A stretch of DNA of 64,000 nt. It comes from a virus. Positions 18,747-35,360 of this stretch are shown here, one piece after another. The stretch's first letter is position 1, and the number at the start of each line of letters is the position of its first letter. The notes under the pieces are model-generated. The model was given only the letters and a program-made list of their open reading frames with translations. It searched no databases and was not told the origin of the DNA. The stretch covers positions 13,128 to 77,127 of the IMG/VR virus record IMGVR_UViG_3300015371_000016; one strand, written 5' to 3'. The position numbers and the translations under genes were made by a program.

Positions 18747-19616
18747 TTAGGCTCTTTCTGCTTGCGCCGCAGCATGCACGACATCCCTAGACGATGGCCC
18801 ATACATATACGGCAGAGGCCCTAGCATAATGTGTCCGGTCTGCGTCGCGTAGCGCACCGCCTGGATGTCGGGATGCGCAGCGAGCCATTCATTGATCGCG
18901 CTGTTGACCGTGCAATAGGCGATTACGTCGTCCACCAGGATGTATTTCGCTCGGCCGAAGCAGAGCGCGATGTCCTTCAGCGCGCCTTCGTGGCTGTGAT
19001 TGCCGTCAATGTGCGCGAGATCGTACGTCCGTGACAAATGCGTCAAAGTGCCGCTATCGCACCGTGCAAGCCTCAGCTCGTGCTCCGGATACTCCTCGTG
19101 CAGCATCCCGTTCGCGTAGGTGATGTCGCCGATATCGATGCCGTGGTAGATCGTGCCGGCAGCACATCCTCGCAGCATCGCCCAGGCTGAGTAGCCGGCA
19201 CGGACGCCGATTTCAAAGATGCTCTTCGGTCGCAATGCAGAGCATAGCTCGGTGTAGAGGCTGTAACTCGGCGGGAAAAGTTCGGTGCGCTGATACTCGT
19301 CGAGAAAGAAGTCGCCTTGAGCGAAAATGCGTTGCGGTAGCGTGCCGTTGCCTTCCCACTCCACCCACGGCACCGCATTGAGCGCGTCCTGCGGCCCGAT
19401 CGTGCGGATGAATACTATCTGCCGTTCGTCGCTGTCCCAGATTTCCAGGTCCATGATCGGATCGCCGTCCGTGATCAGCTCACGAACCTCGAATCCAACA
19501 TTGGACTCTTTGTGCGGAATACGATCGGACGGGCAAAGATAGACCGTGCAATCCTTGCCATTGCCGAGGCGCTGTCCTTGTCGTGCGATCTCGGCGAGGA
19601 TTTCAGCGTCGGTCAC
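18747..19616 (-). CDS. Class I SAM-dependent methyltransferase (Methyltransf_24-like)
   Basis: IFEIGVRAGYS, YHGID, DLAHIDGNHSHEG, ILVDD; GTG start overlaps upstream TGA. Confidence 0.8.
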   Translation of the reverse strand: MTDAEILAEIARQGQRLGNGKDCTVYLCPSDRIPHKESNVGFEVRELITDGDPIMDLEIWDSDERQIVFIRTIGPQDALNAVPWVEWEGNGTLPQRIFAQGDFFLDEYQRTELFPPSYSLYTELCSALRPKSIFEIGVRAGYSAWAMLRGCAAGTIYHGIDIGDITYANGMLHEEYPEHELRLARCDSGTLTHLSRTYDLAHIDGNHSHEGALKDIALCFGRAKYILVDDVIAYCTVNSAINEWLAAHPDIQAVRYATQTGHIMLGPLPYMYGPSSRDVVHAAAQAERA

Positions 19617-21382
19617 GCAGGCAGTTTCTCCCGTGCGGTATCGAGCGCCTGCCTTCCACGTGCTGTCAACATGTCGTCGGGCAGATCGCGTAGGTGGTAG
19701 ATGTAAACGTAATAGCAGCGGCAGTTGTGCGTTACGACTCCCTGGGCTACATACCAATTATTGATAGTTTGGAGATTGTAGACGTGCCCAGACCAAGGCC
19801 GGTTATTGATGTGGACCACATTGCTGCGCTTCGTAGCGAAGGGAAGGCTGTCTATGAAATTGCTGACGCCATTCACGTAAAGCCGACGACCCTCTGGGAG
19901 TGGCACAGGAATAGATGGATCGATCTCGGGCCAAAGTTGCCCCCTAGCCCGCGTATTTGTCTCGACCAACGCGCTATCCGCGCCGCCCATGACAGCGGTG
20001 AAAGTGTGCTCTCGATAGCCAATAGGTTTGGCGTATCGCGTTTGACGATCAAACGTCATATTCAGAAGGCCGGCGGACAACCTCGTACCCAGACTGAGGC
20101 AAATATCCTCATCGCTAGAAATAAGACGCCCGACCAACATAGTGCTGACGCCAAGGCTGCTCATCAAGCTAGACGAGGCAAAAAGGCTTCGCGCACCGAA
20201 TTGCTGCGTAGAGCAAGAAGTCAGTCCAAGATAATCGGGTACGGAGAGGCCGAACTTGTTACCGCTCTTACTGCTAAGAACCTGCGCCCCGACGTACAAC
20301 GGCCTGTAGGTCCATACAATATCGATATCGCTATCGGTACCATCGCCGTGGAATTGCTGGCGCTGCCCACGCCGTGTCTCAGAGAACCCAAATTTCACGA
20401 GCGAGCTATATATTTGCTCAATGCTGGGTATTGCATCGTTATCGTCAGATTCCGTCCCGGCGACCTCTCCGGTAGCCTCGATGACGTGATCGCCATTATT
20501 CAAAGACTGAATAGGACGCCACCCGCACGGCGTAAGAATTGGATGATTTGGTGTCGCGCGGAGCGTTTTACCCGTGTCCGTAATCAGCTCGGTCAATTGA
20601 CCGCTGTACCAGCGCCGATACGCTACTTCCACACCATCAGCGAATGGAAGCCTGGTATCTCCCGGTAAGCAGAATATTTCTTCGCCCGGCTGAGTGATCT
20701 TGTCCGAGAAGCCCGCGTCTCCGGCCCGCATGAAGCCGCGTGTGTGCGCCCAGCTATTCCGGATCGCATACACCTGCTGGTCGCGCTCCTTGTGGTCCTC
20801 GCGATAATCGTAGCCGGACTGGCGCCAGTGTGAGCGCCAGCGTGCGGCAATCGCTCCCGCGTCCTCTGCTAGGATCGCCGAGACCGAAGCATTCAGCTTG
20901 TGACCCTGATCGATGATCACCCGTCGCTCGACGAACGGCAGCGAGGTCAGACCCTTGCGTATCTCCCGCTTCTGCTCTCTGCGGTCGAGCTGGTCGGTGC
21001 CGCCAATCGGGACACTGGTGGCCCAGCCCTGAAAGCGCCTCAGCGTGTCGTTGATCGCCTGCTCACGGTTCAGTTTGATCAGATCGGCTGACGCCTGGAT
21101 GCGTCGGTTTAGTTCCGCCCGCAGCTTCGGCGCTATCCGCTGTACCGTAAAGCGATCTACACCTGGATGGCGGCGCAGCACCGTTCCTTCATCGATCAAT
21201 CGCGTGTAGGTCGAGCCTAGCACCTTGCGCAGCTCTTCGGCCAATGAACGCTCTGACACCATGTCAGTAATGGCCGCCTCGCGGATCAGATCGATCCAAT
21301 ACTGCAAACGCTCTTCGGACTCATAGCCGTGCTCAGCGATATCGTTCAGCGCGTCAGTGACAACCTGGAAGAACGTGGCCAT
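19613..21382 (-). CDS. Head morphogenesis protein (Mu gpF / SPP1 gp7-like) containing an intein
   Basis: IDQGHKL, W.SHWRQ.GYDYREDHKERD, PGEEIF[intein]CRC motifs. Confidence 0.85.
   Translation of the reverse strand: MATFFQVVTDALNDIAEHGYESEERLQYWIDLIREAAITDMVSERSLAEELRKVLGSTYTRLIDEGTVLRRHPGVDRFTVQRIAPKLRAELNRRIQASADLIKLNREQAINDTLRRFQGWATSVPIGGTDQLDRREQKREIRKGLTSLPFVERRVIIDQGHKLNASVSAILAEDAGAIAARWRSHWRQSGYDYREDHKERDQQVYAIRNSWAHTRGFMRAGDAGFSDKITQPGEEIFCLPGDTRLPFADGVEVAYRRWYSGQLTELITDTGKTLRATPNHPILTPCGWRPIQSLNNGDHVIEATGEVAGTESDDNDAIPSIEQIYSSLVKFGFSETRRGQRQQFHGDGTDSDIDIVWTYRPLYVGAQVLSSKSGNKFGLSVPDYLGLTSCSTQQFGARSLFASSSLMSSLGVSTMLVGRLISSDEDICLSLGTRLSAGLLNMTFDRQTRYAKPIGYREHTFTAVMGGADSALVETNTRARGQLWPEIDPSIPVPLPEGRRLYVNGVSNFIDSLPFATKRSNVVHINNRPWSGHVYNLQTINNWYVAQGVVTHNCRCYYVYIYHLRDLPDDMLTARGRQALDTAREKLPA
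19724..20671 (-). mobile_element. Intein, 316 aa, inserted in PGEEIF^CRC
   Basis: Block A CLPGDT, block B LRATPNHPILT..GW, block F/G VYNLQT..WYVAQGVVTHN followed by Cys+1. Confidence 0.9.
19784..20668 (+). CDS. HTH + DUF559/Vsr-like endonuclease nested antisense within the intein
   Basis: GGAG RBS at 19771 before GTG 19784; two HTH-like segments (GKAVYEIADAIHVKPTTL; GESVLSIANRFGVSRLTI); E.EL..L...Q.PVGPYNIDIA...AVE...R..YLLNAGY.IV.V. Confidence 0.75.
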   Translation: MPRPRPVIDVDHIAALRSEGKAVYEIADAIHVKPTTLWEWHRNRWIDLGPKLPPSPRICLDQRAIRAAHDSGESVLSIANRFGVSRLTIKRHIQKAGGQPRTQTEANILIARNKTPDQHSADAKAAHQARRGKKASRTELLRRARSQSKIIGYGEAELVTALTAKNLRPDVQRPVGPYNIDIAIGTIAVELLALPTPCLREPKFHERAIYLLNAGYCIVIVRFRPGDLSGSLDDVIAIIQRLNRTPPARRKNWMIWCRAERFTRVRNQLGQLTAVPAPIRYFHTISEWKPGISR

Positions 21383-21394
21383 TCGTTCCTACTG

Positions 21395-21619
21395 ACGTTG
21401 CGTTGCGTTGCGTTGCGTTGCGCAGCGGTGCGTGGCGGTGCGTGGCGCTGTGGAGAGGCGCGTTGCGGAGCGGAGCGATGCGGAGCGAAGTGGTGCGGTG
21501 CGGTGCGTTGCGTGGCGGTGCGCAGCGATGCAGCGCGGCGAGGTGCGGTGCGCGGCCGGGCGGAGCGTGGCGTGGCGTGGAGAAGCGCGGCGAGGCGTAG
21601 CGGTGCGTGGCGGCGCGAA
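21395..21619 (-). repeat. Phased pentamer array A, 45 units (plus strand GCG-NN; minus strand NN-CGC)
   Basis: Parsed by hand: unbroken 5-nt register, triplet mostly GCG (variants GAG, GTG, GCA, GCC, ACG), variable dinucleotide. Confidence 0.9.
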
Positions 21620-21623
21620 GACA

Positions 21624-22145
21624 TTACTTCCTGACATGAGAACGTCGTGGCGACAGACTGATCATCCATTCGACTGCATTGAACGCGGGCAGATCGTTGG
21701 ACGATCCGCGTGATACCTTCTCGATAGCTCGTACACCGCGCCTCGAAAGCGTCCATAGCGCCGCTTCGCGCACGATCGAGTCCGTAGAAAACCGTGCCTG
21801 CTCGTCGAGATTTAAAGCGTCTAGCTCCACTACCTCTGCCTGCTTCCGGCCGGCGCCAAGTCGGTTATTGGCTCCCTTAAGATACCAAGAATGCTGTCGC
21901 TCGGCGATCTCTGGATCGGTCAGCCGACGCAGTCCGATCCTCGGACGGATGCAATCCCAAACTTGCAAATGTTCTCTCTCAAGTATGCGGCGCGCGGAAA
22001 TCAGAAAGCCAGTAGAGGAAGTCACAGGTACGCCAGCTATCGACGATAGGTCTTCGTAAGTGAAGACTGATCCTTTCTCGTTCTGGGCCAGATATCGAAC
22101 TAGGGCTGATGTAACCCCCGAACGCTCGAACTTGATCACGATCAA
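21624..22145 (-). CDS. Hypothetical protein with wHTH-like N-terminus, partner of the RAMP-like gene
   Basis: 173 aa; TAAGGA RBS; GSVFTYEDLSSIAG..SARRILERE pattern; bounded by arrays A and B. Confidence 0.65.
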   Translation of the reverse strand: MIVIKFERSGVTSALVRYLAQNEKGSVFTYEDLSSIAGVPVTSSTGFLISARRILEREHLQVWDCIRPRIGLRRLTDPEIAERQHSWYLKGANNRLGAGRKQAEVVELDALNLDEQARFSTDSIVREAALWTLSRRGVRAIEKVSRGSSNDLPAFNAVEWMISLSPRRSHVRK

Positions 22146-22155
22146 TCCTTATATT

Positions 22156-22415
22156 GCGTTGCGTTGCGTGGCGGCGAGATGCGAGGCGTAGCGCGGCGTT
22201 GCGAGGAGGCGATCTGCGTTGCGTTGCGTTGAGGCGAGGTGCGAGGCGGTGCGGAGCGTCGCGTTGCGGTGCGCAGCGGCGAGCGGCGCTGAGGGGTGGC
22301 GCGTGGCGATGCGTAGCGTTGCGTGGCGACGAGCTGCGCGGCGGCGAGTTGCGAAGCGTAGCGTGGCGTCGAGCTGCGAAGCGGTGCGTCGCGAAGCGCT
22401 GCGGGGCGTGGCGCC
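22156..22415 (-). repeat. Phased pentamer array B, 52 units
   Basis: Unbroken 5-nt register GCG/GAG/GTG-NN on plus strand, followed by GATAT. Confidence 0.9.
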
Positions 22416-22419
22416 GATA

Positions 22420-23007
22420 TCAGACTTTTAACTCCTGCCACTCGAACTTGGTTACACGGAAGCGCCCATTGCTGCCGGCATTAGCGGGCCGTCCACGACC
22501 GAGGCCGACGATCATCCCGCCTGATCTGAGAGTATGCTCGAAGACCTCGGCAGTAATAATGTCATCGACAACCGTGAACTCAGCGACGCCGTGCCATTTA
22601 TCGAATACCGGAAAGCGGCGCTTGACGCGCTTTCCTGATCCACGCACGCCGTCAGAATTGGCGTTGATCATAACCATCTTGGCGTCGTCTGGCTTGAGCG
22701 GCTTGCCGTTCGCGATCGGCATATTCCCGTTGCAGATTACGCCGGAGGTAAAGAAGCTCTTATATGTCGCTCCGCGCCGGCCGGGCACCTTGTCGCCCAG
22801 CTTCTGCGCTGCGAGATCGATGCATTGCTTCAGTCCCATCTGTGGAACACAGACTTGCCCTTCCGCTGTCGTGGTGCACTTTTCCCGCCACGTCCGCGCG
22901 TCATAGTCATCGTGAGACTCGCGATCTAGCCACGGCGCTTCGTGCAGCGCGGATTGGCTATAGGGTGAGCCAGGAATCGATTCCAGATATGCTTTGCATG
23001 TCTTCAT
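22420..23007 (-). CDS. Stand-alone Cas7/RAMP-like protein
   Basis: 195 aa; N-terminal strand + SP, VPQMGLKQCI (cf. RAMP IPGSSLKGAL), RFPVF..W.G..EF.V, Gly-rich loop GLGRGRPANAGSNGRF before the final strand. Confidence 0.7.
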   Translation of the reverse strand: MKTCKAYLESIPGSPYSQSALHEAPWLDRESHDDYDARTWREKCTTTAEGQVCVPQMGLKQCIDLAAQKLGDKVPGRRGATYKSFFTSGVICNGNMPIANGKPLKPDDAKMVMINANSDGVRGSGKRVKRRFPVFDKWHGVAEFTVVDDIITAEVFEHTLRSGGMIVGLGRGRPANAGSNGRFRVTKFEWQELKV

Positions 23008-23037
23008 CCTAGATTATTCCTTGTTGCGTGCGTTTTT

Positions 23038-23163
23038 GTGACGGGATGCGGTGCGGTGCGACCGAGTCGCGGTGCGGTGCGTTGCGTCGCGTTGCGATGC
23101 GAGGCGTCGAGGTGCGGAGCGATGCGTGGCGTTGCGGTGCGACGAGATGCGATGCGACGCGTC
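23038..23163 (-). repeat. Phased pentamer array C, 25 units with one 1-nt slip at about 23063
   Basis: GCG-NN register on plus strand, followed by GATAT as in array B. Confidence 0.85.
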
Positions 23164-23183
23164 GATATCCCTCAGAGACCGGC

Positions 23184-23278
23184 CCGTCACGGCTGGTGCA
23201 CGTTCCAGCGGCGCCCATAGCGCCACCGATCCCAAAGGAATTGGTAATATCTATCGTGCTCTCCAGGCACCGTGACGG
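23184..23278 (-). ncRNA. Predicted structured leader upstream of array C
   Basis: CCGTCACGG/CCGTGACGG, CTGG/CCAG and GCACG/CGTGC nested stems enclosing a GGCGC-CCATA-GCGCC hairpin and a second imperfect hairpin. Confidence 0.45.
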
Positions 23279-23342
23279 CGGCGCTTTCGCCGGGCATGAA
23301 GGCACAACTTTATATGCGGGTCAAGCGGTTCCTTCTGTTATG

Positions 23343-23402
23343 GCGAAGCGTTGCGTTGCGTTGCGTGGAGTCGCGCGGTGATGCGTCGCGTGGCGGCGTA
23401 GT
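23343..23402 (-). repeat. Phased pentamer array D, about 12 units
   Basis: GCGAA GCGTT GCGTT GCGTT GCGTG GAGTC GCGCG GTGAT GCGTC GCGTG GCGGC GTAGT. Confidence 0.8.
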
Positions 23403-23419
23403 GACGCACCCTAGCAGAT

Positions 23420-24910
23420 TTATCTCGAACTAGCCAATTTGAAGCTAGGTGGCTTAAGCCCAGCCGCCATTCCGTTGGCGCCCTGGCCGCCCTGGTCCAT
23501 AAGCAAGCTCTTCTGTTGCGCATCCTGCATATCCTGCGCATGCGCGGCAAGGGCCTCGGTATCCAGAGAAAGCGTGCCCTGGAAGATCAGCTCAGCTTTA
23601 TTGACCTCGCTTTGCAGCCACTCGGTCAGCCGAGCCTTATTCTCGGGATCTAAGCTGCCATCGTTCAGTAGCTGGTAAAGCGCCAGCGCCGCCTTCATCT
23701 TTGTATCCTCAACCTTCACCTTCTCGCTGTCGGGCTCTTGGATCAGCGAAGGCCACTCGGCCGTGAAGTTATTCTGCCATGTCTGCAACGCTGAGGCGTA
23801 GCGGACGTTGCCATATTCCTGCGGATACTCCTGCTGGATGCCTCGATAGAATTCTTCGTTCCAGGCACGGTGTTGGACGATGTTGGTCAGCCACTCATAG
23901 ACCGGGTCCATGCTCTCGCGGAAGCCGTCCACAAAGCGAGCAATCACCTTGGCATCCTCGGTGCCCTCGCCGAAGCCCTCGACCATCGTTTCGTTCTCTA
24001 GCAGGATCGCCGGCAGAGCCGCACCGGTCGCTAGATTCTTGAGAATATTATTCCTCGCGAATGTGCCGGCGCCGTCGATATTCGTTAGATTGAGCGAAGA
24101 GATATCTTCGTCCACGCCGATCGACAACACGTTGTCCGTGCGGCCCTCTTGCAGCATCGATCGCTTGCGAGCGAATATGTTGATCATCCCTCTATTAGCG
24201 ATACCACCGGGTGCCTGCATCTTTGCGATCAGCAGTCCCGCTTTCCGGGCGATCATGTCGTCGGTGATCATGCAGTGCAGGTAGCTCTTGAGCGGATAAA
24301 GCACCCGCTGAAAAACCGATCTTCCCGTGAATCCGAACGCGCTGCCGGTATACGATATATACAGCGGCTCCTCGTTCATCACCACACACGTGCGGCTGGG
24401 ATGGTAGGTCTCACCCTGCGTCGTTACCTGCATCGCCTTTTGGAACAGTGGCGAATTCGGGTCCTGGTCGAGCATTAGGCTGCCGGCGGTATTCAGCGGA
24501 TCGAGCACGTTCAGGAATATGCTGTCCGTCGCTAGAGTCCCTACTTCCAACGGTGCCGTCGCTGGCTTGCCCTCGATGCCTAGCACCACCGAAGAAAGGC
24601 CGTAGATGCGCGACTGCTTGATGACGTTCGCGATGACCTTGTCGGCCTTCATCGCACGCCACTGTTTCTGGAATGCCTCGGCTACTCGCTCGGGCGCGCC
24701 TGAGACGGTGATCTCTCGGTCCTGGCTCTGTGCGAGCTGGATCGGCGCTTCGACCATCTTGGCGCCGATCGGATGATACAGATAGATCAGCTTGCAGAGC
24801 TGGTAGCTCACGTCGCTGCCGGGCAGGATATCGTCAGCGGTCAGTATCTGCATCAGCGCCGGCCCGACATTGGAGCCGACGACCGAGATCGATGCTCCGC
24901 TACCGCTCAT
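23420..24910 (-). CDS. Portal protein (DUF1073-like)
   Basis: YQLCKLIYLYHPIGAKM, VLDPLNTAGS, YHPSRT, FGFTGRSV, GFGEGTED motifs; follows TerL. Confidence 0.85.
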   Translation of the reverse strand: MSGSGASISVVGSNVGPALMQILTADDILPGSDVSYQLCKLIYLYHPIGAKMVEAPIQLAQSQDREITVSGAPERVAEAFQKQWRAMKADKVIANVIKQSRIYGLSSVVLGIEGKPATAPLEVGTLATDSIFLNVLDPLNTAGSLMLDQDPNSPLFQKAMQVTTQGETYHPSRTCVVMNEEPLYISYTGSAFGFTGRSVFQRVLYPLKSYLHCMITDDMIARKAGLLIAKMQAPGGIANRGMINIFARKRSMLQEGRTDNVLSIGVDEDISSLNLTNIDGAGTFARNNILKNLATGAALPAILLENETMVEGFGEGTEDAKVIARFVDGFRESMDPVYEWLTNIVQHRAWNEEFYRGIQQEYPQEYGNVRYASALQTWQNNFTAEWPSLIQEPDSEKVKVEDTKMKAALALYQLLNDGSLDPENKARLTEWLQSEVNKAELIFQGTLSLDTEALAAHAQDMQDAQQKSLLMDQGGQGANGMAAGLKPPSFKLASSR

Positions 24911-24911
24911 G

Positions 24912-26249
24912 TCAGAACCCCTTAGCGTCACCCAGCGCGCAGGCTATGCCGTAGCAAAAAGCGTCGAGCAGATCGTCTTCGCGATTGTCGATCCCTACTC
25001 TGTAACCGACCACTTGGCCGAGAAGATGGTTCCGGCTGGTCTCATTATATATGAGTGTGCGATCATAGGCCGGGCCGGATATCTTGACCTCGCCACGGTG
25101 CACGTAGCCGCTCACTGAGACCGCCCTGGCGTCCTTCCCTAGTGCCACAAGCTGGCTGTCGATCGGATCGGCCGGCAGACCTCGGCGCCTTGCTTGCTGG
25201 AGCAGGATCGTGCCTGAGCCCTTGTCCTCGATGTAAGCGCCCGTCGCACCGAAGCGCGCGTGGCACTGTCTCGCCAGCTCTTCCATGCGCTGGTAGACAC
25301 CCGGCAGCCAGACTTCGAGCAGCGAGCCTTCCACCTTAATAATATCGTAGTCCAGGATTATCAGCGGCGTGCCGACATGCTGGCTGCGAGCCCAGTAGAT
25401 CACCGCTGTGCCGTCGTGCTGGCTTCTGTCCTTCAGCGCGGTATCGATCGTGCAGAAGACCAGATCACAGAAGGACGGGTAATCGACCGGCCTGTCGTTA
25501 TCGAGCAGCGCAGGCAGCGGAAAGAACGCTGCTCCGCTAAAGTCCACGAACTCAGCGAGGTACTCTTGCTGATAGACCAGCGGATGCGTCTCCGCCTCGA
25601 TCTGCCGAAGCTCCTCTCTGGGCATGTAGGGATTAGCGCTGGTAGGCGCGTGATACTCGACGAAGCCCATGTCCGCGTTATTGCAGAGCTGCCAAAGGAA
25701 ATTGTCTGGATCGATCCCGTTGGTGTTCGACAGCGCGATACAAGAACCGCGATAGTCCACTAGGGTCGGCCGTATCGCCTTCCGCCAAATGTCCCTCATG
25801 TTCGACTTGGCGAAGGCCGCTTCGTCGATGACGACCTGATGGTAGCGTCGTGACCGGCCCGCCCGCTCATTCTCTAGCGACCAGAAATCTATGCGGCCGC
25901 CCGCATTGGTCCTGATCAGTCCGTCGTTCCTCGATGCCCTGGTGACACAGGGAGCCAACATTGTCGCCAGCTCAGAATATGCCTCGGCGATGAACTTATA
26001 CTCCGGCGCGAACCATCCGACGAATTTACCGCGCAAGGCTGCGTCGGCCGCTATCGTCTGTCCTAATAGGGTCTTGCCCCACCGCCTGCCGCATCGGACG
26101 ACCTTGAACCTCCCTGGCATTTGGAAGGCACGAATCTGATCTTCGTGAAGGACGGGCAAATATACTTCCCGAGTGGAACCGTCCGAGCTGCTGCCGCCTC
26201 TGTTGTATGGTAGCTCAACTCGGAAGACTTGCTCCGTTTCCTCGGTCAT
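24912..26249 (-). CDS. terL: Terminase large subunit
   Basis: Walker A RCGRRWGKT, Walker B VVIDEAA, nuclease IDTA..DG, IEDKGSG, DDLLDA. Confidence 0.92.
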   Translation of the reverse strand: MTEETEQVFRVELPYNRGGSSSDGSTREVYLPVLHEDQIRAFQMPGRFKVVRCGRRWGKTLLGQTIAADAALRGKFVGWFAPEYKFIAEAYSELATMLAPCVTRASRNDGLIRTNAGGRIDFWSLENERAGRSRRYHQVVIDEAAFAKSNMRDIWRKAIRPTLVDYRGSCIALSNTNGIDPDNFLWQLCNNADMGFVEYHAPTSANPYMPREELRQIEAETHPLVYQQEYLAEFVDFSGAAFFPLPALLDNDRPVDYPSFCDLVFCTIDTALKDRSQHDGTAVIYWARSQHVGTPLIILDYDIIKVEGSLLEVWLPGVYQRMEELARQCHARFGATGAYIEDKGSGTILLQQARRRGLPADPIDSQLVALGKDARAVSVSGYVHRGEVKISGPAYDRTLIYNETSRNHLLGQVVGYRVGIDNREDDLLDAFCYGIACALGDAKGF

Positions 26250-26685
26250 GTCCGTTGCTCTGCTCTTCTTCCTCTTCGTCGGCACCGATCTGCGGCTGGT
26301 GATAGACCGTAGCCGGCAGACCGCCATGGATCACGATCGTCGTGGTTCCGGGCTGGCTCGATCCTAACGGTAGGCTAGGATCGTCGGACACTGGCTGCAC
26401 CTTCCATTCCGGCCCACCGAACAGACACATCCAGTATTTAATCGCATTTACGTTGCCGGATATACCTGCCCGGATCAAGGCAGCGATCAGCGTCGCTTTG
26501 ACGGTCTCCCTTCCGCCGTTCAAGTCCTCTCGGAAGTATTTATAGAGCGTCTTCACCGTGATGCCGCCAGACGATCTGCGCACCACATTAGCGATCACGC
26601 CATGGCTTATTCCGTGCGACGATAGCGTCTGCACCAAAAATCGTTCTTCTGGTGTGGGCTCGAAAGTAACTCCGCGACGGGCCAT
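26215..26685 (-). CDS. terS: Terminase small subunit
   Basis: HTH (GISHGVIA..TLYKYFREDL), GNVNAIKYW; directly upstream of terL. Confidence 0.75.
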   Translation of the reverse strand: MARRGVTFEPTPEERFLVQTLSSHGISHGVIANVVRRSSGGITVKTLYKYFREDLNGGRETVKATLIAALIRAGISGNVNAIKYWMCLFGGPEWKVQPVSDDPSLPLGSSQPGTTTIVIHGGLPATVYHQPQIGADEEEEEQSNGHDRGNGASLPS

Positions 26686-27114: not shown

Positions 27115-28227
27115 CTATTTAATCAGCGCCTTGGCGACATCGCGGTCTTCCATGATCGGTCCGCAATAGGAGAAGATGGCGGAAGGTCTGCCGCCAAACG
27201 CGCCGCGTGGCACCGCTTCGGCCATGGACGGTTCGAGATTCTTCTTGGTCATTCCGGGCTTCTGTTCGAGCCGCCAGCGTGGTGATTTATCGAAGGCCCG
27301 CGTGATCGCCGGATGACTGCTGGGCGTCCGGTATCTGTAGCCGCAAGCACGAAAGGCGGAGGCCACGGTGTCTGTCAGGGCGAAGGCCAGACCGAGGCCC
27401 TGGAAGTCGGGTAGGGTGACCATGCGGGAGCCACGATACAGATCGTCGGCCTTCTGGTGCGGCTGGTGCAGCACAGCGAGGAACGACGCCGGCCGACCAT
27501 TTGCACAGAGAACGAAGCATTTGGCGGCCTGATGCAGCGACGAGTTCAGATAGTGAAAGCGAGCGAAGGTGTGCCATACTTGATGGGCAACACGATTGAC
27601 TGTGCACGGGATGTCAGGTCTTCGTTGAACCGACCTCCAGCGGAAGGTCATGGTGGCCGGCTCCAATACCCAGTCCGGCTGCAACCAGTCTTCCAGATCG
27701 TAGTGACAGGTGGCGGCTACGAATTTCTTGCCCTGCCGCCTGATATATTTCTGCACCGCGTGCGCGCCGATCTGTGCGACCTGACGATCGACCACCGAAG
27801 TGAATTCGTCGCAGACAATATTGTCGTCCGATTGCAGCAGTCGCCGACCGAGGTCAACGCGGAAGCGCTCACCGTTTGACAGCACACCGTAGGGCCTCAG
27901 CCACGCTGGAATTGTATTGAAGCCGACCGCTTGGCAAATGCCGGTTATATCTTCGATGGAATATTCGCTAGGGAAGTCATCGATCACCGAAGCAGCATGC
28001 CATTCGAACTGGCGCGGTGCGCCGAAGCAGCGATTGAGTATCGTGCTCTTGCCTGATCCCGAAGGCCCGACGATCAGTCCGATATTCCAGTCCCTGTCCT
28101 CGATGGGTAGGTTTCCGTGCCATTCGATGTGTGCTCGTTCGCTAGGCGGCACATCGAACATCGAGGAGACCTGAGCGACCCGGATGCTGTCGCTTATCGG
28201 CGTGTCAACGGCGATATCTATTTCCAT
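27115..28227 (-). CDS. ABC-type ATPase fused to GNAT-like acetyltransferase
   Basis: GPSGSGKST, LSNGERFR, CDEFTS, ATCH; C-terminal RMVTLPDFQGLGLA acetyl-CoA motif. Confidence 0.88.
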   Translation of the reverse strand: MEIDIAVDTPISDSIRVAQVSSMFDVPPSERAHIEWHGNLPIEDRDWNIGLIVGPSGSGKSTILNRCFGAPRQFEWHAASVIDDFPSEYSIEDITGICQAVGFNTIPAWLRPYGVLSNGERFRVDLGRRLLQSDDNIVCDEFTSVVDRQVAQIGAHAVQKYIRRQGKKFVAATCHYDLEDWLQPDWVLEPATMTFRWRSVQRRPDIPCTVNRVAHQVWHTFARFHYLNSSLHQAAKCFVLCANGRPASFLAVLHQPHQKADDLYRGSRMVTLPDFQGLGLAFALTDTVASAFRACGYRYRTPSSHPAITRAFDKSPRWRLEQKPGMTKKNLEPSMAEAVPRGAFGGRPSAIFSYCGPIMEDRDVAKALIK

Positions 28228-28953: not shown

Positions 28954-29380
28954 TTTATTTACGTTCTTTGACAGATGCATCCGAACAGCGCAGCGCTTCG
29001 ATCGATCGATCGCGGCCCGTGTGCGGGAAACGTCTCGATGACGAATCCGCATAGCAACACGTCTCAATGACGACGCTAATACACGATACCGTTGCGCAAT
29101 CTATGCTGTTCGATTCTGTCCGCTCTTTCGCTGTCGGTGTATACGCTTCTGTTTACCACATCACTGTGAGGGTCTGCCGTTTCGGGGCCGCCCGGATGGG
29201 CCACATGATGTCCGAACAGAGGGTATATACGATCAGGGCGCATCGCGCGCTATGCAGATCAGCACGATACACAATTGAATCAGCAGCCCTACTCTACCCC
29301 AGCGCATAAGCACGGGATGGGTAGGACTTGGTGTGTTCCTCCTCTGGAAAGCGCGTGTAGCCCATTAGGGCGGGATTGCG

Positions 29381-29457
29381 CGCTTGTAATGCAGCAGGAC
29401 CGGTCCCAAGCCCGGCGCCGCAGGGTTTCCCCCCCAAGCGGAATGCAGAGGGAAACG
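29381..29457 (+). ncRNA. Twister ribozyme 1
   Basis: UAA-UGCA-GC..CCGGUCCCAAGCCCGG..(P5 insert)..AAUGCA-GAGGG; P1 weak. Confidence 0.75.
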
Positions 29458-29531
29458 AACCAAACTTGCGGCGGGCGCTCCGGCGTCCGTCGCTCTTTTT
29501 CCTGAAGAGACCCACAGAGGAGCACCGCTTT

Positions 29532-29798
29532 ATGAAGGGAATAATTCCGTATGCCCACGACAATATCCGCGGGAGTCGCGACCAGCCATGCGGGTTCGTC
29601 TATCTAGCGGAAAACGGTCACGGCATCGGACGCATCGGCTACGCTTACACGTCGTCTCTAGAGATTTTCAACTGCAAGGAAACTCCCAACGGAGTCAATA
29701 TCGACGTGCTCCATCGTGTCCGTAGATATATCAAGCAGCAGTTTCCGCATTTGCCGAGAGAGCGTGACTTTATGACGCAGTTACGGGATCAACCCTGA
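29532..29798 (+). CDS. Hypothetical early protein
   Basis: ACAGAGGAG leader then ATG. Confidence 0.6.
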   Translation: MKGIIPYAHDNIRGSRDQPCGFVYLAENGHGIGRIGYAYTSSLEIFNCKETPNGVNIDVLHRVRRYIKQQFPHLPRERDFMTQLRDQP

Positions 29799-29828
29799 CG
29801 ACACCAGCGCGCTGTGACAGCGGCGCGC

Positions 29829-29878
29829 GCGGTCTGCGGATACTCTCCGCACTGAAGAGGCCACGAGGCCGAAACCGC
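29829..29878 (+). ncRNA. Hammerhead ribozyme, type III
   Basis: GCGGUC^ stem I UGCGGA/UCCGCA, CUGAAGA, stem II GGCC/GGCC, GAAA-CCGC; predicted cleavage after 29834. Confidence 0.85.
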
Positions 29879-29902
29879 ACAGTGCATACAGAGGAACACC
29901 AA

Positions 29903-30166
29903 ATGTCGAAGATCATGGACCTACCGCAGGCAGTCAAGCGCGGATATCTACTGGCATGCCGGCCTCAAGGAGTCACACGAGCGCAGCTTACCAGTGAACT
30001 CGACAGCCAAATCGGCTGGAAGCGATATCTTGAGCGTATGGCAAAGTCAGACGCGCGCAGGCTTCTCAAGCCAAAGAAAAGCGACGACGGCTCCGTTCTA
30101 TACCGTGTTGTTGGTCACAAAGCCGCAGCAAGCAGGGTCGGAGTAATGCGAAAGGTGGCTCGATAA
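29903..30166 (+). CDS. Small wHTH-like (DUF3489-like) protein
   Basis: RPQGVTRAQL..IGWKRYL..VLYRV. Confidence 0.55.
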   Translation: MSKIMDLPQAVKRGYLLACRPQGVTRAQLTSELDSQIGWKRYLERMAKSDARRLLKPKKSDDGSVLYRVVGHKAAASRVGVMRKVAR

Positions 30167-30196
30167 TCTTGGAATACAAAAAGGGAAACGGGCACT

Positions 30197-30712
30197 ATGT
30201 CCTCGTCGCACTTTAGAAGCATGAACCAGCTTCGGTCAATGAATTGGGATAGCAAAGAGGCCGCAATCAAGGAACTTAAGCGCAATGGCTTTGCTCCTCA
30301 CGGAGAAGACTACACCATTGCCGAAGTTTCGGACGGTCATTACCAGATCGTTGATCGTGCTAATTCGTCAGACGGCCACCAACAAGCAGCACGTAAAGAG
30401 CCGACAAAGAAAGCGGCCCCTTCTTCAAAGAAGGAAGTCGCGAAGAAGGAAGTCGCGAAGAAGGAAGCTCCGAAGAAGCAAGCGGAGCCTTCTTCTAAGA
30501 AGGGACCAGCTCCTCGCCAAATGTCCGCGTGGACCAAGCAAGCGCTGGAGATGGCAAAGAGCCCAAACGGAGCTAAGCGTGCTAAGCTTAACGAGCTTCG
30601 TGCCAATATCGGCTGGAAATCCTATCTAGCTCGCATTGGCAAAAAAGATGGTCTCGTGATGGTCGTCACTAAAGACGACGAAGGATTAGTCTACGCTCTA
30701 GTAAAGCGGTGA
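30197..30712 (+). CDS. Lys/Ala-rich linker protein with DUF3489-like C-terminal domain
   Basis: KKEVA repeats; SPNGAKRAKL..IGWKSYL..LVYAL. Confidence 0.6.
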   Translation: MSSSHFRSMNQLRSMNWDSKEAAIKELKRNGFAPHGEDYTIAEVSDGHYQIVDRANSSDGHQQAARKEPTKKAAPSSKKEVAKKEVAKKEAPKKQAEPSSKKGPAPRQMSAWTKQALEMAKSPNGAKRAKLNELRANIGWKSYLARIGKKDGLVMVVTKDDEGLVYALVKR

Positions 30713-30716
30713 TTTT

Positions 30717-30790
30717 TGTCGAAACACACGAGCGCCGAAGCGTTCGTGTGTCGCTGGGAGATGCCCTACCCAGCCTGAAGAGACAGGGCA
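30717..30790 (+). ncRNA. Hammerhead ribozyme, type II
   Basis: UGUC-GAAA, stem III CACACGA/UCGUGUG, UC^, stem I GCUGGG/CCCAGC, CUGAAGA-GACA; loop UGCCC can pair with 3' GGGCA; predicted cleavage after 30752. Confidence 0.88.
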
Positions 30791-30807
30791 CTACAGAGGA
30801 ACACCAC

Positions 30808-31101
30808 ATGACAAAGACAAACCCCAATAGACACCGAGCGGCCTTGTCCTATATCGAGGCGGTTAACGACCAGTTGCTCGATCTAGTGGCGCCGATCGAA
30901 TGCTTGAGTAGCTTCGAAGCCGTGTCACCAGACGAGCTGGAGGCGCTGAAGAAGTGCACCAGCGATCTTCTATCGGTCGTGACCATCCTTCGCTCTGTCC
31001 AGAGCTATCACGAGCGCAAGCAACGCGCCTCCTCGATAGTCGTCACCACTTCGTCGCAGGATATAGCGCGGGAGCGGCGAACGCGAGCCGGAGGAAGATG
31101 A
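30808..31101 (+). CDS. Hypothetical early protein
   Basis: ACAGAGGAAC leader then ATG. Confidence 0.55.
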   Translation: MTKTNPNRHRAALSYIEAVNDQLLDLVAPIECLSSFEAVSPDELEALKKCTSDLLSVVTILRSVQSYHERKQRASSIVVTTSSQDIARERRTRAGGR

Positions 31102-31638
31102 TCCCGTATTTGCTTGTATTCTGGTTCCTCTTGCCTGTGTCACAGGCAGGAGACCCGCCTGTAAGCGAAACAATGATCATCGAGATGTCGTCTAAGGAGC
31201 AGTGCGAACGTGCACAACGAGAACTGAACAAGCGTGAAGACTGTGTGGCGGTATGCCACAAGGTCCGCTCGTGAGATGGTTCACTCTGTGCAGCGTAATG
31301 GCGTGGACGATCAGCCTGACCTTCCAGCCCATTAAGCTAATCGCTGCACAGCTCGCGGCGCTGTCTGTTATGTTTATTGTTGGAACGAGACCGATCATGG
31401 GACCGGCGCACGAATTCCGCCGCGCCCTCAGAGAGGGAGTTAATGATGTCTCACGTATGCTCCTCAGAGCACGAACCGCGGTGGCTGATCGATGCTCGTG
31501 GAATAGAGTGCTGTCTGGTGTGCGATCTCTGCGAAGCGGAGAAGCGAAGGCAATACCGCCCGGAGATATTCACTGATCCTGACTATGATCACTATGAAGA
31601 ACTCTAGCGATTCAGGAAGCGGGGCTTCGGCCCCGCTG

Positions 31639-31700
31639 GCTTAATGCAGGAGTGCCGGTCGCAACCCCGGCCACCGCATCGTGCGGGATGCAGAGCGAGC
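31639..31700 (+). ncRNA. Twister ribozyme 2
   Basis: GCU-UAA-UGCA-GG..CCGGUCGCAACCCCGG..AUGCA-GAGCG-AGC; compensatory changes in both pseudoknots. Confidence 0.85.
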
Positions 31701-31714
31701 ACAGAGGAGCACCA

Positions 31715-32194
31715 ATGGCTAGAGCAATCGTGATCGATGCCGAGAAGCGCGAGCTGCGCTATATCGAGATACCAGACGGGTCCAATAGCCTTCCTATACT
31801 GCGCGACATTGTCGATGGATGGATCAGCGTCGCATATACGTGGAACGACAAGGATGTACTTTATGTGGATGACGAAGGACTAATGAAAGGCCGAGAGCAT
31901 TACTTCCGACTTTTCGATCGCACTGATGGCCAACCACTCGCGGGCAATGGCGTTATCCTCGGTGAGGAAGTGATCGACGAAGAAGGCGACTTCGTGAATT
32001 ACCTCGACACGCGACTGACCATCGAATTCCTTTCTAGTCGCGTTCAATTCTTGACTAAGCAACAAGCAATCGCGTGGTTCAAAGGCAACGCTTCAGAGCC
32101 GATGATCACGGTCACCACGATTGATGCTGACAAGATCAAAACCGAAGTCATCGCCCGATATGCGATTTTGATTCCCGAAGATGACGATGATTGA
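31715..32194 (+). CDS. DUF3846-like protein
   Basis: L.DIVDGWI, LYVDDEGL, PLAGNGVILG motifs. Confidence 0.7.
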   Translation: MARAIVIDAEKRELRYIEIPDGSNSLPILRDIVDGWISVAYTWNDKDVLYVDDEGLMKGREHYFRLFDRTDGQPLAGNGVILGEEVIDEEGDFVNYLDTRLTIEFLSSRVQFLTKQQAIAWFKGNASEPMITVTTIDADKIKTEVIARYAILIPEDDDD

Positions 32195-32221
32195 GAATCT
32201 ACCGCGCCGCTTCGGTGGTGC

Positions 32222-32276
32222 GGACTTAATGCAGCCAACGGCGGTTCCAAGCCCGCGTGTAATGCAGAGGAAGCCC
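32222..32276 (+). ncRNA. Twister ribozyme 3
   Basis: UAA-UGCA-GC..GCGGUUCCAAGCCCGC..AAUGCA-GAGGA; T1 covaries UCC/GGA. Confidence 0.85.
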
Positions 32277-32295
32277 CTTACAGAGGAAACACCAC

Positions 32296-32532
32296 ATGAA
32301 GGAAGACTTACTGCAAGCTTCCGCTCGTAGAAAAGCGGCGGCCATGGAGCTGTTCAACAGTCCACGTGGTCGATATCTACTAGGACAGGCCCTAGCGCTT
32401 GCCGTCAAAAGCATGCGCTCCGAACGCTATCCGGAGACCTCGAACATCGCGGACATGGAGCTGCTCGGCAACGAGATATTCGCGTTCGGCTATCGCCTAG
32501 AACTAGTGAAAGGGACACGCGCAACATGCTGA
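32296..32532 (+). CDS. Hypothetical early protein
   Basis: ACAGAGGA leader then ATG. Confidence 0.6.
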   Translation: MKEDLLQASARRKAAAMELFNSPRGRYLLGQALALAVKSMRSERYPETSNIADMELLGNEIFAFGYRLELVKGTRATC

Positions 32533-32948
32533 TCATGTACCACTCGATGGATATCACTGATCTCGCACTAGCTGCTGCCCTTACCGGCGGCCCTAATCCT
32601 AATAGGGCCTATCTCGCCTACGATCTATTCCTCAAAGGCTACTACGAAGCGGTCGCCGGCACTAACGCTGAGCCGAACTTTATCGGTCAACTGAAGCTGC
32701 TTAAGATCACACAAAACAAGCGAGGCAAGTCCTGGTCTCGCTATCGTCACAAGAGCCTTCTGGTCAACGATCCGGTGCGCGCTGTGCTCGGCATACGAGA
32801 ATCACAAACAGGCGACGTGATCGAGGAACAGAACAGTCGGGGCGTCATCAAGATGCGCTGGGTAGTCGATCTGATCAAAGCACCCGAAGACGATCCTGTT
32901 TCGTGGATGGTCGGCTTCACGCCGATGCCCGGAGACTATTCCCACTGA
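32526..32948 (+). CDS. Hypothetical protein
   Basis: 140 aa, coupled to upstream gene. Confidence 0.55.
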   Translation: MLIMYHSMDITDLALAAALTGGPNPNRAYLAYDLFLKGYYEAVAGTNAEPNFIGQLKLLKITQNKRGKSWSRYRHKSLLVNDPVRAVLGIRESQTGDVIEEQNSRGVIKMRWVVDLIKAPEDDPVSWMVGFTPMPGDYSH

Positions 32949-32975
32949 TTGAAGTCGGCGGGATTCCTTCTCGCC

Positions 32976-33033
32976 GATTTAATGCGGCCACCCATAGGGT
33001 GTCGGTCCCAAGCCCGGACAAACGCAGAGGGTC
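32976..33033 (+). ncRNA. Twister ribozyme 4
   Basis: UAA-UGCG-GC, P3 CACCC/GGGUG, CGGUCCCAAGCCCG, AAACGCA-GAGGG; P2 covaries UGCG/CGCA. Confidence 0.85.
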
Positions 33034-33057
33034 CTTCCATACAGAGGAAACATCACT

Positions 33058-33393
33058 ATGCCGAGACGACCTAGAAAGAAGGAGGCGGCTAACGGCGCTT
33101 CTAAAAACGGGGAAACCAGATGGCAAGGCCATGATCCGGTTTTCTTCCATCGACAGCAAGTCAAAGTCGGCGTGCGCTTTGTGAATTTCGGCCGAATGGA
33201 TCACGGCTCGATTTGGGAAGTAATTCAGATTTACACCCACGTCGTGCTGGCGAGCGGCAACATACGTCGCTCGCAGGTCGAACAAGTGGAGCGACTGTCG
33301 GATGACGTTCTGATACGCAGGCAAGGCCGCAATGATCCGCGTCGCTGCAAATTTTCGACGCTCTCTTACTCAGCTATCTGGAGGATATCGTGA
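33058..33393 (+). CDS. Hypothetical early protein
   Basis: ACAGAGGA leader then ATG. Confidence 0.6.
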   Translation: MPRRPRKKEAANGASKNGETRWQGHDPVFFHRQQVKVGVRFVNFGRMDHGSIWEVIQIYTHVVLASGNIRRSQVEQVERLSDDVLIRRQGRNDPRRCKFSTLSYSAIWRIS

Positions 33394-33845
33394 GCCGTTC
33401 ACGCGAGACTTTCGACGTATGGTGCGCCGTGCGAGTCGAAGCTGATGCCGGCACTAGACTTGAGATCGTCAGGAACGAAAAAGGAGATTGGGTTTGCCTC
33501 GGCGCAGCCCCGGTCAATAAGACCCTCGCTCTTCCGGCTCCAAATGCCAAGTCTCAAGGCGCCGAGTTGACCAAGAAACTCCTAGGTGAGCGCAGCAAAC
33601 GCTACAAACCCGGGAATCATCCACTAGATGAAGCAATCTTGGCTGCTATATCAAAGCCGATCGATGCCCAGCATATTCGTGAAGCTTTGGGAATAGCCCC
33701 AGAAAATCCGCTAGCTAAATGTTTGACTCGCAGAGTCGCCAAACTAAAGAGCGAAAAGCTTATAAGGGTTTTCCCTCCTGACAGCCATGTTATGTGGCCT
33801 CGATACGTTCGAGCGTCCAACACCAACCTAAAAGTGGTAGCCTGA
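33390..33845 (+). CDS. Hypothetical protein with C-terminal wHTH-like region
   Basis: GTGA overlap with upstream gene; AILAAIS.PIDAQHIREALG pattern. Confidence 0.5.
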   Translation: MSRSRETFDVWCAVRVEADAGTRLEIVRNEKGDWVCLGAAPVNKTLALPAPNAKSQGAELTKKLLGERSKRYKPGNHPLDEAILAAISKPIDAQHIREALGIAPENPLAKCLTRRVAKLKSEKLIRVFPPDSHVMWPRYVRASNTNLKVVA

Positions 33846-33914
33846 CTAGACGGAAGCGGCTCGCTGTGGCGCGCCGTTTTCGCCCCGTCAGGGGAAACAG
33901 AGGAGCACCAATCT

Positions 33915-34229
33915 ATGAAAACAGCGATTTTGGCTGCTGTCGCTATAGCTATGACCTCACTGCCGGCGCTGGCAAGGTATGATGGCCACCTAAGAACTAA
34001 CTGCCGAGACCCTGCTGTTCTGGAAACGGTTCGTCTCGGTATCGCTAGGCGAGTGAGTCCTGTGTTCCTGCAAGCGTCCTGGCAGAATGTATTTACATTC
34101 CCGAACCCAGGCGGCTGGGACGGCCTAGAATGCTACGGCACACTGAATGCCGGCTCCACCTTTAGAGTCGTTTACTTCGGCAACGTGGAGATCGGCGGCC
34201 AAGAATACATTTCCTGGAGGGCTCGCTGA
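33915..34229 (+). CDS. Secreted/periplasmic protein with signal peptide
   Basis: MKTAILAAVAIAMTSLPALA; two Cys. Confidence 0.65.
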   Translation: MKTAILAAVAIAMTSLPALARYDGHLRTNCRDPAVLETVRLGIARRVSPVFLQASWQNVFTFPNPGGWDGLECYGTLNAGSTFRVVYFGNVEIGGQEYISWRAR

Positions 34230-34318
34230 TCTGACCTGGACGCAGGCTGCTCACTCGCGGGTGCGCAGTCTGCGCCTCGGCCAGAATAGTCTGACTGAGG
34301 AATACAGAGGAACACCAA

Positions 34319-35251
34319 ATGACTGCACGAAACTGGATCGGCGGCAGGAATGGCAACCAAGCCTCTTCTGCTGCCAACTGGTCTCCTACTGGCGCACCGC
34401 TATCGGGCGACACGCTGACGATCGATCACGGCACGATGCAAGTCACTGGCAGCGCGCTCGGAAACGACGATCTGCACGTGACGGGCAATGCGACGGTCAG
34501 TTTTCACCAGAGCTACGGCGATCATCTGATCATCGGCGTGCCTGGACCGACCAAGCTGAACGCGACGGTCAACCTATCGAATTCTGCCGTCGCGATCAAT
34601 CAAGGCTGGGATAATCTGAAGATCAATGCCGCCGGCACCAACTGGCTCGCTCTGTCTAGCTATCCCGGCTACAGAGCGACCAACGGATCGGTGACGATCA
34701 AGAATTCAGGAACCCTAGTCGGGAGCGTCGGCGGCCTAGGCACGAGCGTGCGGATCGATGGCGGGACGTTCTACAATCAGGACTCCCATGTCGGTCTGGA
34801 CGGCGGATCGTTCGTGATCAACTCCAAAGTCGCGGGAGACGGCTCCTGGACTCTGGGCACGTATCACGCACCGTATGCCAAGCTCGAATTCATGCAATCG
34901 GTCAGCTCAGAGCAGACGATAAACCTGGAAAGCGGTGTGGGATACGGGCTCCTACAGATCGACCAGCCATCTACCTTCCGGGCCAAAATCGGGTGGGCGA
35001 GTGAGCAAGCGATCGTCGATCTGAATAAGCTCGCCGCCGATAGCTACAAATATGATGCCTCGGCCGGTGCGCTCGACTTCTTCAGCGGCAACCGGATGAT
35101 CTATCAGCTCCACGTCGAGAAAACGTCGCCCTACGTCGGAACTTACGCGGTCGCCAAAGGAACCTCGACCGGCGGTGCCGGCGTGGAACTCTATTCCAAG
35201 GACTTCGCGTGGAAGCTTCCGCACGGCGCTGATCTGCCAGTGCACACCTAA
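34319..35251 (+). CDS. Beta-rich, autotransporter-passenger-like protein
   Basis: WIGG..ASSAANWSPTGAP.SGD.L.I N-terminus; Gly/Ser/Asn/Thr-rich. Confidence 0.6.
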   Translation: MTARNWIGGRNGNQASSAANWSPTGAPLSGDTLTIDHGTMQVTGSALGNDDLHVTGNATVSFHQSYGDHLIIGVPGPTKLNATVNLSNSAVAINQGWDNLKINAAGTNWLALSSYPGYRATNGSVTIKNSGTLVGSVGGLGTSVRIDGGTFYNQDSHVGLDGGSFVINSKVAGDGSWTLGTYHAPYAKLEFMQSVSSEQTINLESGVGYGLLQIDQPSTFRAKIGWASEQAIVDLNKLAADSYKYDASAGALDFFSGNRMIYQLHVEKTSPYVGTYAVAKGTSTGGAGVELYSKDFAWKLPHGADLPVHT

Positions 35252-35283
35252 CACTACCCGCACCGTGTCGGGGTCGGTGCGGG

Positions 35284-35341
35284 GCTTAATGCAGCAGAGC
35301 TGGTCCCAAGCCCAGCGCCCTACAGGGAATGCAGAGGGAGC
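35284..35341 (+). ncRNA. Twister ribozyme 5
   Basis: GCU-UAA-UGCA-GC..GCUGGUCCCAAGCCCAGC, P5 CCCU/AGGG, AAUGCA-GAGGG-AGC. Confidence 0.88.
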
Positions 35342-35360
35342 AACAGAGGAACATCATCAC

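Follow-up and report, generated by a model that had tools for sequence, protein, structure and literature searches.

Between the portal and MuF-type genes of a 77-kb phage, four gaps around two small genes are occupied by arrays of pentamers. The question that this locus raises is whether these arrays are guides that work with a neighbouring protein and, if so, where one guide ends and the next begins. We analysed a 64,000-nt stretch (the window) of the source assembly, which is a single 77-kb virus record. The first-pass annotation had proposed that the arrays share fixed 5′ and 3′ signatures that bound separate guide units, and that the longest of them, array B, holds two such units.

Pentamer arrays between phage head genes

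On the minus strand, the order is terminase large subunit, portal, array D, a 179-nt gap, array C, the 195-aa gene, array B, the 173-aa gene (p173), array A and MuF. The features are given below in this order.

24912–26327, minus: terminase large subunit gene
23420–24931, minus: portal gene (PF06381, phrog_146), upstream flank of the cassette
23343–23407, minus: array D, 11–13 units right after the portal stop codon, ending in (AACGC)3-TTCGC
23166–23342, minus: non-repeat gap of 179 nt between arrays D and C
23048–23165, minus: array C, GATATC, 20 in-phase units, a 1-nt slip, three more units and a degenerate AACGC-like end
22420–23007, minus: vipr-like gene, 195 aa, stand-alone Cas7-type RAMP with the G-loop GLGRGRP...NGRF
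22156–22420, minus: array B, pseudo-unit ATATC and 52 units NNC[G/T]C, candidate vrRNA array
22216–22230, minus: internal (AACGC)3 of array B, followed by AGATC at 22211–22215; candidate in-phase boundary, suggestive only
21624–22145, minus: vap-like accessory gene, 173 aa, winged-helix-like N-terminal domain followed by long helices
21395–21624, minus: array A, ATGTC and 44 units, with an (AACGC)4-AACGT end 13 nt before the MuF ATG
19613–21382, minus: MuF-type head-morphogenesis gene (phrog_15127/324, PF14890), downstream flank

Array B has the vipr stop codon on one side and the p173 ribosome-binding site (RBS) on the other. It consists of 53 in-phase pentamers NNC[G/T]C that keep a fixed 5-nt register from 22420 to 22156 (minus strand) with zero indels. 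Position 5 is C in 53/53 pentamers and position 3 is C in 51/53; position 4 is G in 41/53 and T in 11/53. Positions 1 and 2 are free, with all four bases occurring. The CGC triplet is expected by chance at ∼2.4% of positions (C = G = 0.29) and fills 41 of the 53 in-phase slots; its phasing is therefore not due to chance. When both strands of the 64-kb window were scanned, phased CGC arrays were found in these four gaps only, all on the minus strand. Together with the fixed triplet, the arrays use all 16 NN pairs.

The four arrays differ in length: 11–13 units in D, ∼20–23 in C, 52 in B and 44 in A. The register of array C is broken by a single 1-nt phase slip close to its 3′ end, and its degenerate end reaches the vipr RBS. 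Array A is of low complexity in parts (many AC and CA units). The sequence features reported in the first-pass annotation were all recovered on the minus strand. Array B begins GATATC-GG-CGC, array C GATATC-GA-CGC and array A ATGTC-TT-CGC, and AACGC runs close arrays A, B and D, with (AACGC)2 followed by AA as the last bases of B. The internal (AACGC)3 of array B and the AGATC after it were also as described. Arrays A, B and C end just upstream of AGGA sites, stopping 7–30 nt short of the AGGA-type ribosome site or start region of the next gene, which is MuF (ATG), p173 (GTG) and p195 (ATG), respectively.

The RNA of array B folds worse than its own shuffled versions (z +2.7). The 179-nt gap between arrays D and C folds slightly better than its shuffles (z −1.64) and has no counterpart in the layout of the closest relatives. 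Rfam gave no match in the cassette, this gap included, and nothing at gathering scores across the whole window. A scan for promoters and terminators returned background level only. As perfect NNCGC repeats cannot hold a stop codon in any of the three sense frames, the ORFs that cross the arrays are mechanical and spurious. Three of them on the minus strand (22142–22441, 21346–21756 and 23009–23305; 98–136 aa) are likely to be annotated falsely by gene callers.

The surroundings are those of a phage: terminase, portal and MuF genes are the neighbours, and no cas genes lie beside the arrays. A search of the window for a CRISPR-like repeat-spacer array (period ∼60–79 nt) found none, the only arrays being those of period 5. 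CRISPR-Cas identity was ruled out by the absence of such an array and by the phage head genes on either side. Residues 249–553 of the MuF-type protein (19613–21382, minus) form an intein splicing domain (PF14890). The gene at 27115–28227, minus, which lies upstream of the terminase genes, encodes a 370-aa fusion of a P-loop ATPase with a GNAT acetyltransferase (phrog_11143, E 2e-98). On the plus strand, the region 29345–35342 has five twister-like matches (three twister-P1 and two Twister-P5; four at E 9e-10 to 4e-5 and the fifth at E 0.49) and a type III hammerhead match (E 7e-7), all below the Rfam gathering scores. These matches support the view that ribozymes may punctuate the early operon.

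A Vipr homologue beside the arrays

An AlphaFold (AF2) model of the 195-aa protein, built from a 50-sequence alignment, has a pLDDT of 95. Its top structural matches are Cas7-type RAMPs (Cmr4/Csm3, type VII Cas7 and gRAMP domains; Z 10–12.7 over 150–170 residues), to which Foldseek assigned an E of 2e-7. The alignment of the family shows a conserved C-terminal G-rich loop. When the family profile was compared with all PDB sequences, the sole match with E ≤ 1 was the 'SUSP1 Vipr protein' (36pp_D, E 5.6e-9). An hhalign comparison with the SUSP1 vipr product gave a probability of 96.3% (E 1.7e-9) over the C-terminal 65 aa, which include the G-loop; the N-terminal half aligns with SUSP1 Vipr by fold only. 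These results make the 195-aa protein a homologue of Vipr that has a Cas7-type fold. The earlier assignment of the arrays to a RAMP protein was thus borne out by the AF2 fold, by the Foldseek matches to Cas7 proteins and by the profile match to SUSP1 Vipr. At least 396 protein clusters belong to this family, all annotated as hypothetical and none with a Pfam domain. A tblastn search of 50,697 GenBank phages with p195 found no relative.

VIPR systems combine a ∼20-kDa stand-alone RAMP (Vipr), an accessory vap gene and vrRNAs of 9–16 pentamers, in which GGY is fixed, NN is hypervariable and the 3′ tail is invariable. One Vipr protomer sits on each repeat, and the NN pairs read double-stranded DNA with every third base skipped. 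Phages deploy VIPR against satellites, prophages and other phages (10.64898/2026.04.26.720920, 10.64898/2026.04.26.720927 and 10.64898/2026.10.15.759431). In these systems, a guide consists of a run of repeats with a fixed 3′ element at its end (10.64898/2026.04.26.720920). Because the 195-aa protein has a Cas7-type RAMP fold and its profile matches only SUSP1 Vipr in the PDB, we assigned the locus to VIPR. We estimate a probability of about three in four that the four arrays with the 195-aa and 173-aa genes are a phage VIPR system inserted between portal and MuF. We counted against this reading that no target was found in the searches made, that the arrays have no SUSP1-type tail, that two of them run to 44–52 units, that array A is of low complexity, that internal AACGC runs are not significantly enriched and that p173 has no detectable sequence homology to vap1.

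The nearest known system is the Type II VIPR of Escherichia phage SUSP1 (Vipr YP_009199429, vap1 and four vrRNAs; PDB 36pp). Reading its locus directly, we found a 195-aa vipr, a 146-aa vap1 and gene-strand TNNGG arrays in the gaps to either side. The present locus shares with it a stand-alone RAMP of ∼195 aa with detectable homology and a small partner gene directly downstream. In the flanking gaps, both have gene-strand pentamer arrays whose triplet and 3′ end are fixed and whose NN is free, and both belong to phages and lack cas genes. The two differ in the following respects. The triplet is C[G/T]C here and GGY in SUSP1; in the published register G1 G2 Y3 N4 N5, G2 and Y3 are kept and G1 is changed to C. 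The arrays have 11–52 units compared with the 9–16 published, those of 44–52 units being 3–5 times longer. They end in (AACGC)n-AACG, whereas SUSP1 vrRNAs carry a ∼40-nt pseudoknot tail; Rfam and comparison of folds with shuffles found no structured 3′ tail of the SUSP1 kind after the arrays of the window. Unlike in SUSP1, the arrays abut ribosome sites inside a head-gene operon.

The change of triplet may have a counterpart in the protein. In SUSP1 Vipr, G1 is contacted by H17 and D177, G2 by R138 and W178, and Y3 by R179 among others (10.64898/2026.04.26.720927). In the hhalign alignment, D177 corresponds to R171 of the present protein (invariant in the family), W178 to G172 (F in most members) and R179 to R173 (invariant). 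The Asp-to-Arg swap at the G1-reading residue, with the Y3 contact kept, fits a putative G-to-C switch in specificity.

The 173-aa partner is less clearly placed. Residues 10–75 of its AF2 model form an H-E-H-H-E-E arrangement at pLDDT 85–94, and its Foldseek matches, weak as they are (best E 8e-3), are every one a wHTH regulator. Its position is kept in ∼25 related loci. Some published vap genes carry a winged-helix-like or DNA-interacting domain (2026 VIPR preprints); between p173 and SUSP1 vap1, no sequence homology was detectable.

The CGC triplet puts the locus outside the canonical GGY motif and inside the VIPR class, as the papers allow 'a related consensus' and report other triplets. 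Seven VIPR types have been published, with the related repeats NNNGG, YNNNG and NNNNG and with staggered and ribozyme-interspersed arrays (2026 VIPR preprints; YNNNG: 10.64898/2026.04.26.720920). Against the register Y-NN-G-G of the YNNNG repeats, the unit found here reads C-NN-C-G and fits YNNNG. A genome-wide survey of non-coding sequence recovers VIPR arrays and gives 21 clusters with other triplets, such as GAC, CAC, WGT and TGH (10.64898/2026.10.21.760802). These non-canonical arrays likewise have a period of 5 and another fixed triplet and lie beside a Vipr-like fold; they are said to repeat ∼10 times, and CGC is not among the triplets named in the available text. The locus is a member of the class published in 2026, with the CGC triplet, very long tail-less arrays and placement in a head-gene operon as its variant features.

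With the Class 1 CRISPR backbone (Cas7/Csm3/Cmr4 on crRNA), the system shares the RRM core, the G-rich loop and thumb, and one protomer per fixed RNA step. It differs in having neither a repeat-spacer array nor other cas or adaptation genes. The step of VIPR is 5 nt with three bases held, compared with 6 nt with one base flipped in Class 1 CRISPR, and, unlike that of Class 1 CRISPR, its guide code is non-contiguous.

We examined whether arrays and protein occur together elsewhere. IMG/VR was scanned at the DNA level alone for ten CGC spaced 5 nt apart, which gave at least 119 contigs. Of the 119 listed, 66 encode a homologue of the 195-aa protein (33–80% identity) beside the arrays, nearly always on the same strand. 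The remaining 53 listed contigs comprise 17 monotonous microsatellites, 19 in which less than 1 kb of fetched sequence lies beyond the array, and 17 with varied units. The last 17 (L003, L014, L023, L030, L031, L045, L058, L063, L067, L071, L077, L088, L094, L098, L099, L116 and L117) have varied CGC/NN units and flanks that each exceed 1 kb, with no Vipr gene detected by the family HMM. Their arrays are possibly solo vrRNAs or partners of a more distant Vipr. In the reverse test, eight loci were found by protein alone in bacterial MAGs (Acetobacteraceae, at 75% identity, Beijerinckiaceae, Roseomonas, Hyphomicrobiales, Rhodobacteraceae and others); same-strand arrays were present in 8/8 and opposite-strand arrays in 0/8.

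The usual layout in the relatives is [arrays]-gene-[arrays]-(∼500-nt gene)-[arrays]. Array lengths among them range from 7 to 79 units, being 20–79 in the clade at least 62% identical to the window and 7–30 in more distant clades. In one upstream array (L084, 2658–2857), a block of ∼13 units is duplicated, indicating that arrays also grow by multi-unit duplication.

Array boundaries across the family

Boundary statistics were collected from 252 arrays of 65 vipr-positive loci. The final unit is AACGC in 147/252 arrays (58%), compared with 12% of all units. AACGC is also the penultimate unit in 33% of the 252 arrays, compared with 5–10% at internal positions. The 4 nt after the last unit are AACG in 117/252 arrays (46%), and the next two are AA in 61%. 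Among the eight protein-found loci, AACGC is the final unit in 22 of 29 arrays. The 58% figure and the protein-found loci together make the 3′ signature a feature of the family: (AACGC)1–4-AACG is a conserved 3′ handle in the putative role of the repeat-tail junction.

The 5′ side is much less uniform. Across the 252 arrays it shows C at −1 (80%), G at +1 (46%) and a weak T at −4; GATATC is a feature of this phage, not of the family. Thus, of the fixed 5′ and 3′ signatures proposed earlier, the comparison of termini across homologous loci (the 65 and the eight protein-found) upheld the 3′ motif, while the GATATC start did not extend beyond this phage.

Many relatives have arrays divided into discrete units of 8–37 repeats, with a separator directly after AACGC-AACG. 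Separators are of two classes. One is AU-rich and 18–26 nt long, with a consensus near AACGWTTY-TTTTGGC-ATTT-CC; the other is GC-rich, strongly self-complementary and 56–80 nt long. This order of handle, separator and next array makes discrete guide units the rule in the family. The GC-rich separators of 56–80 nt are conserved in clades of ∼40% identity (L055 1300–4000; L008, L011, L021, L068, L075 and L104). They have several stems that cannot all form at once; in one example, an 8-bp hairpin with a GNRA cap precedes a long bulged hairpin. Rfam gave no match on 13 related loci with long separators, and these elements may be structured vrRNA tails or unrecognised self-cleaving elements.

The general claim of separate guide units is thus supported by the separators of many relatives, and the internal boundary of array B is plausible only. 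The internal mark leaves 40 units before AGATC and 11 after it (12 with AGATC), and array D has 11; these counts agreed with those given before. As judged from the array sequence, array B may comprise a 40-unit and an 11-unit guide that follow each other in phase with no separator between them, a reading to which we give close to an even chance. The evidence across the family is mixed. Internal adjacent AACGC pairs were not significantly enriched in the 65 loci (28 vs 20.8 ± 4.0 in shuffles). The unit that follows an internal AACGC run was without CGC in 11/20 cases, compared with a background of 18.5% (Fisher p 3e-4); 3–5 of those 11 degenerate cases are true array ends overrun by array calling, and without them the effect is marginal. 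AGATC in array B fits this pattern and resembles the ATATC and ATGTC pseudo-units at array starts. Because the pairs are not significantly enriched and the degenerate-unit effect weakens after cleaning, the 40 + 11 split is plausible only.

The principal alternative is that array B forms a single uninterrupted guide of 52 units, or remains unprocessed as the scaffold of a long Vipr filament, with the (AACGC)3 being simply three AA units. The absence of significant enrichment of internal AACGC pairs agrees with it, as do the long separator-less arrays (26–79 units) of the whole clade at ≥62% identity. The filament is reported to grow by one protomer per repeat, with no reported ruler (10.64898/2026.04.26.720927). 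However, a single guide of 52 units would read ∼156 bp, far beyond any described vrRNA, and the tendency of the unit after an internal AACGC run to be degenerate, as at array starts, argues for a boundary. Moreover, the closest relative (L004, Vipr 80% identical) has five discrete arrays of 13–30 repeats where the window has the 52-unit array B. We regard a single continuous guide as a tenable reading with roughly a one-in-three standing, and the two-guide reading of array B as the one set out above.

Putative guide content and significance of the variant

We compared two loci (L004 and L124) in which vipr is 86% identical at the nucleotide level. Their arrays are 69% identical, which is the baseline set by the fixed triplet, and unit-level alignment shows partial homology only, with indels of whole units (5 nt). 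The NN pairs thus turn over faster than the vipr gene. Across loci, no 4-unit words are common beyond the AA handle. Fast NN turnover, the lack of shared words and the poorly folding array RNA fit a single-stranded guide that would be held by protein. NN usage correlates with the reverse complement of codon positions 1–2 (r 0.53) and not with the sense frame (r 0.03); in the comparison with codon positions, no model beats a uniform one.

Searches for targets gave no match above chance. Seed-and-extend searches with a skip of 0–3 in 1.2 Mb of related loci returned background only, and in a full scan of six related whole phage genomes real guides scored like shuffled ones. Exact searches with six seeds of 9–10 units, drawn from a relative and from arrays A, B and C, found three matches in IMG/VR, all due to chance and none extending, and zero in metagenomes. 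A 14-unit pattern with ≤3 mismatches had no match in five MAGs or 401 Acetobacteraceae genomes. These searches cover a small part of guide space, mostly with no mismatch allowed, and are no test of the skip rule.

That no targets were found in the searches made would also suit arrays that are mainly cis-acting or decoys, where Vipr binding tunes late-gene translation or soaks up the Vipr of a rival phage. The short distance of 7–30 nt between array ends and the following start codon, seen in most relatives as well as in the window, and the partly low complexity of array A point the same way, and decoy-like solo vrRNAs occur in satellites (10.64898/2026.10.15.759431). A pure binding site, however, needs no hypervariable NN beside a strictly conserved triplet, which is the signature of a guide code, and the relatives have many tandem discrete units far from start codons. 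We therefore consider a mainly cis-acting or decoy role improbable.

That the arrays act only as DNA, without any role as RNA (as a slippage-prone microsatellite, as a signal for recombination or packaging, or as a Rho- or TRAP-like protein site that has no connection with the RAMP gene), is very improbable: ∼17 of the 119 listed IMG/VR pattern matches are indeed true monotonous microsatellites, but here all 16 NN accompany the fixed triplet, the arrays are strand-locked to vipr in 65 + 8 loci with a conserved handle at their end, and the neighbouring protein is homologous to one shown to bind exactly such RNA. The 5-nt spacing of triplets is reminiscent of TRAP sites, and an RNA rich in C and poor in G is reminiscent of rut sites. 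Given the RAMP fold and the VIPR papers, we dropped the following candidates: TRAP-like triplet + 2 spacing, Rho rut sites, Chi-like clusters and translated pentapeptide repeats.

On the preferred reading of the locus as a phage VIPR system, and by analogy with SUSP1, the arrays would be transcribed with the late operon. Each fixed triplet would be gripped by one Vipr protomer, so that the NN pairs are presented. These pairs would read the double-stranded DNA of a rival element, with one base skipped per unit, and lead to its silencing. (AACGC)n-AACG would mark the 3′ boundary of each guide, and the G-to-C change of the first fixed base would go with SUSP1 Asp177 being an invariant Arg here.

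More speculatively, and with the odds against it, the clade of alphaproteobacterial phages may represent a distinct VIPR design. In this design the G-to-C change would be brought about by the Asp-to-Arg exchange in the G-loop, and tail-less guides would be bounded only by in-phase (AACGC)n. Arrays of 44–79 units would lie in the late mRNA against ribosome sites, either as piecewise poly-guides or as filaments of >130 bp, with Vipr loading coupled to the translation of head genes.

VIPR, a class of RNA-guided DNA binders whose code is non-contiguous, became known only months ago, and natural variants can therefore reveal which parts of the design are changeable. The present family suggests that the grip of Vipr on RNA can use CGC, for which the change of Asp177 to Arg is a possible, testable basis. 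(AACGC)n-AACG offers a simple rule for calling guide ends in a phage family that is widespread in soil and freshwater (at least 396 protein clusters and at least 66 IMG/VR contigs). The tail-less arrays of 40–80 units could hold several guides each, and they raise the question of whether guide length has any limit.
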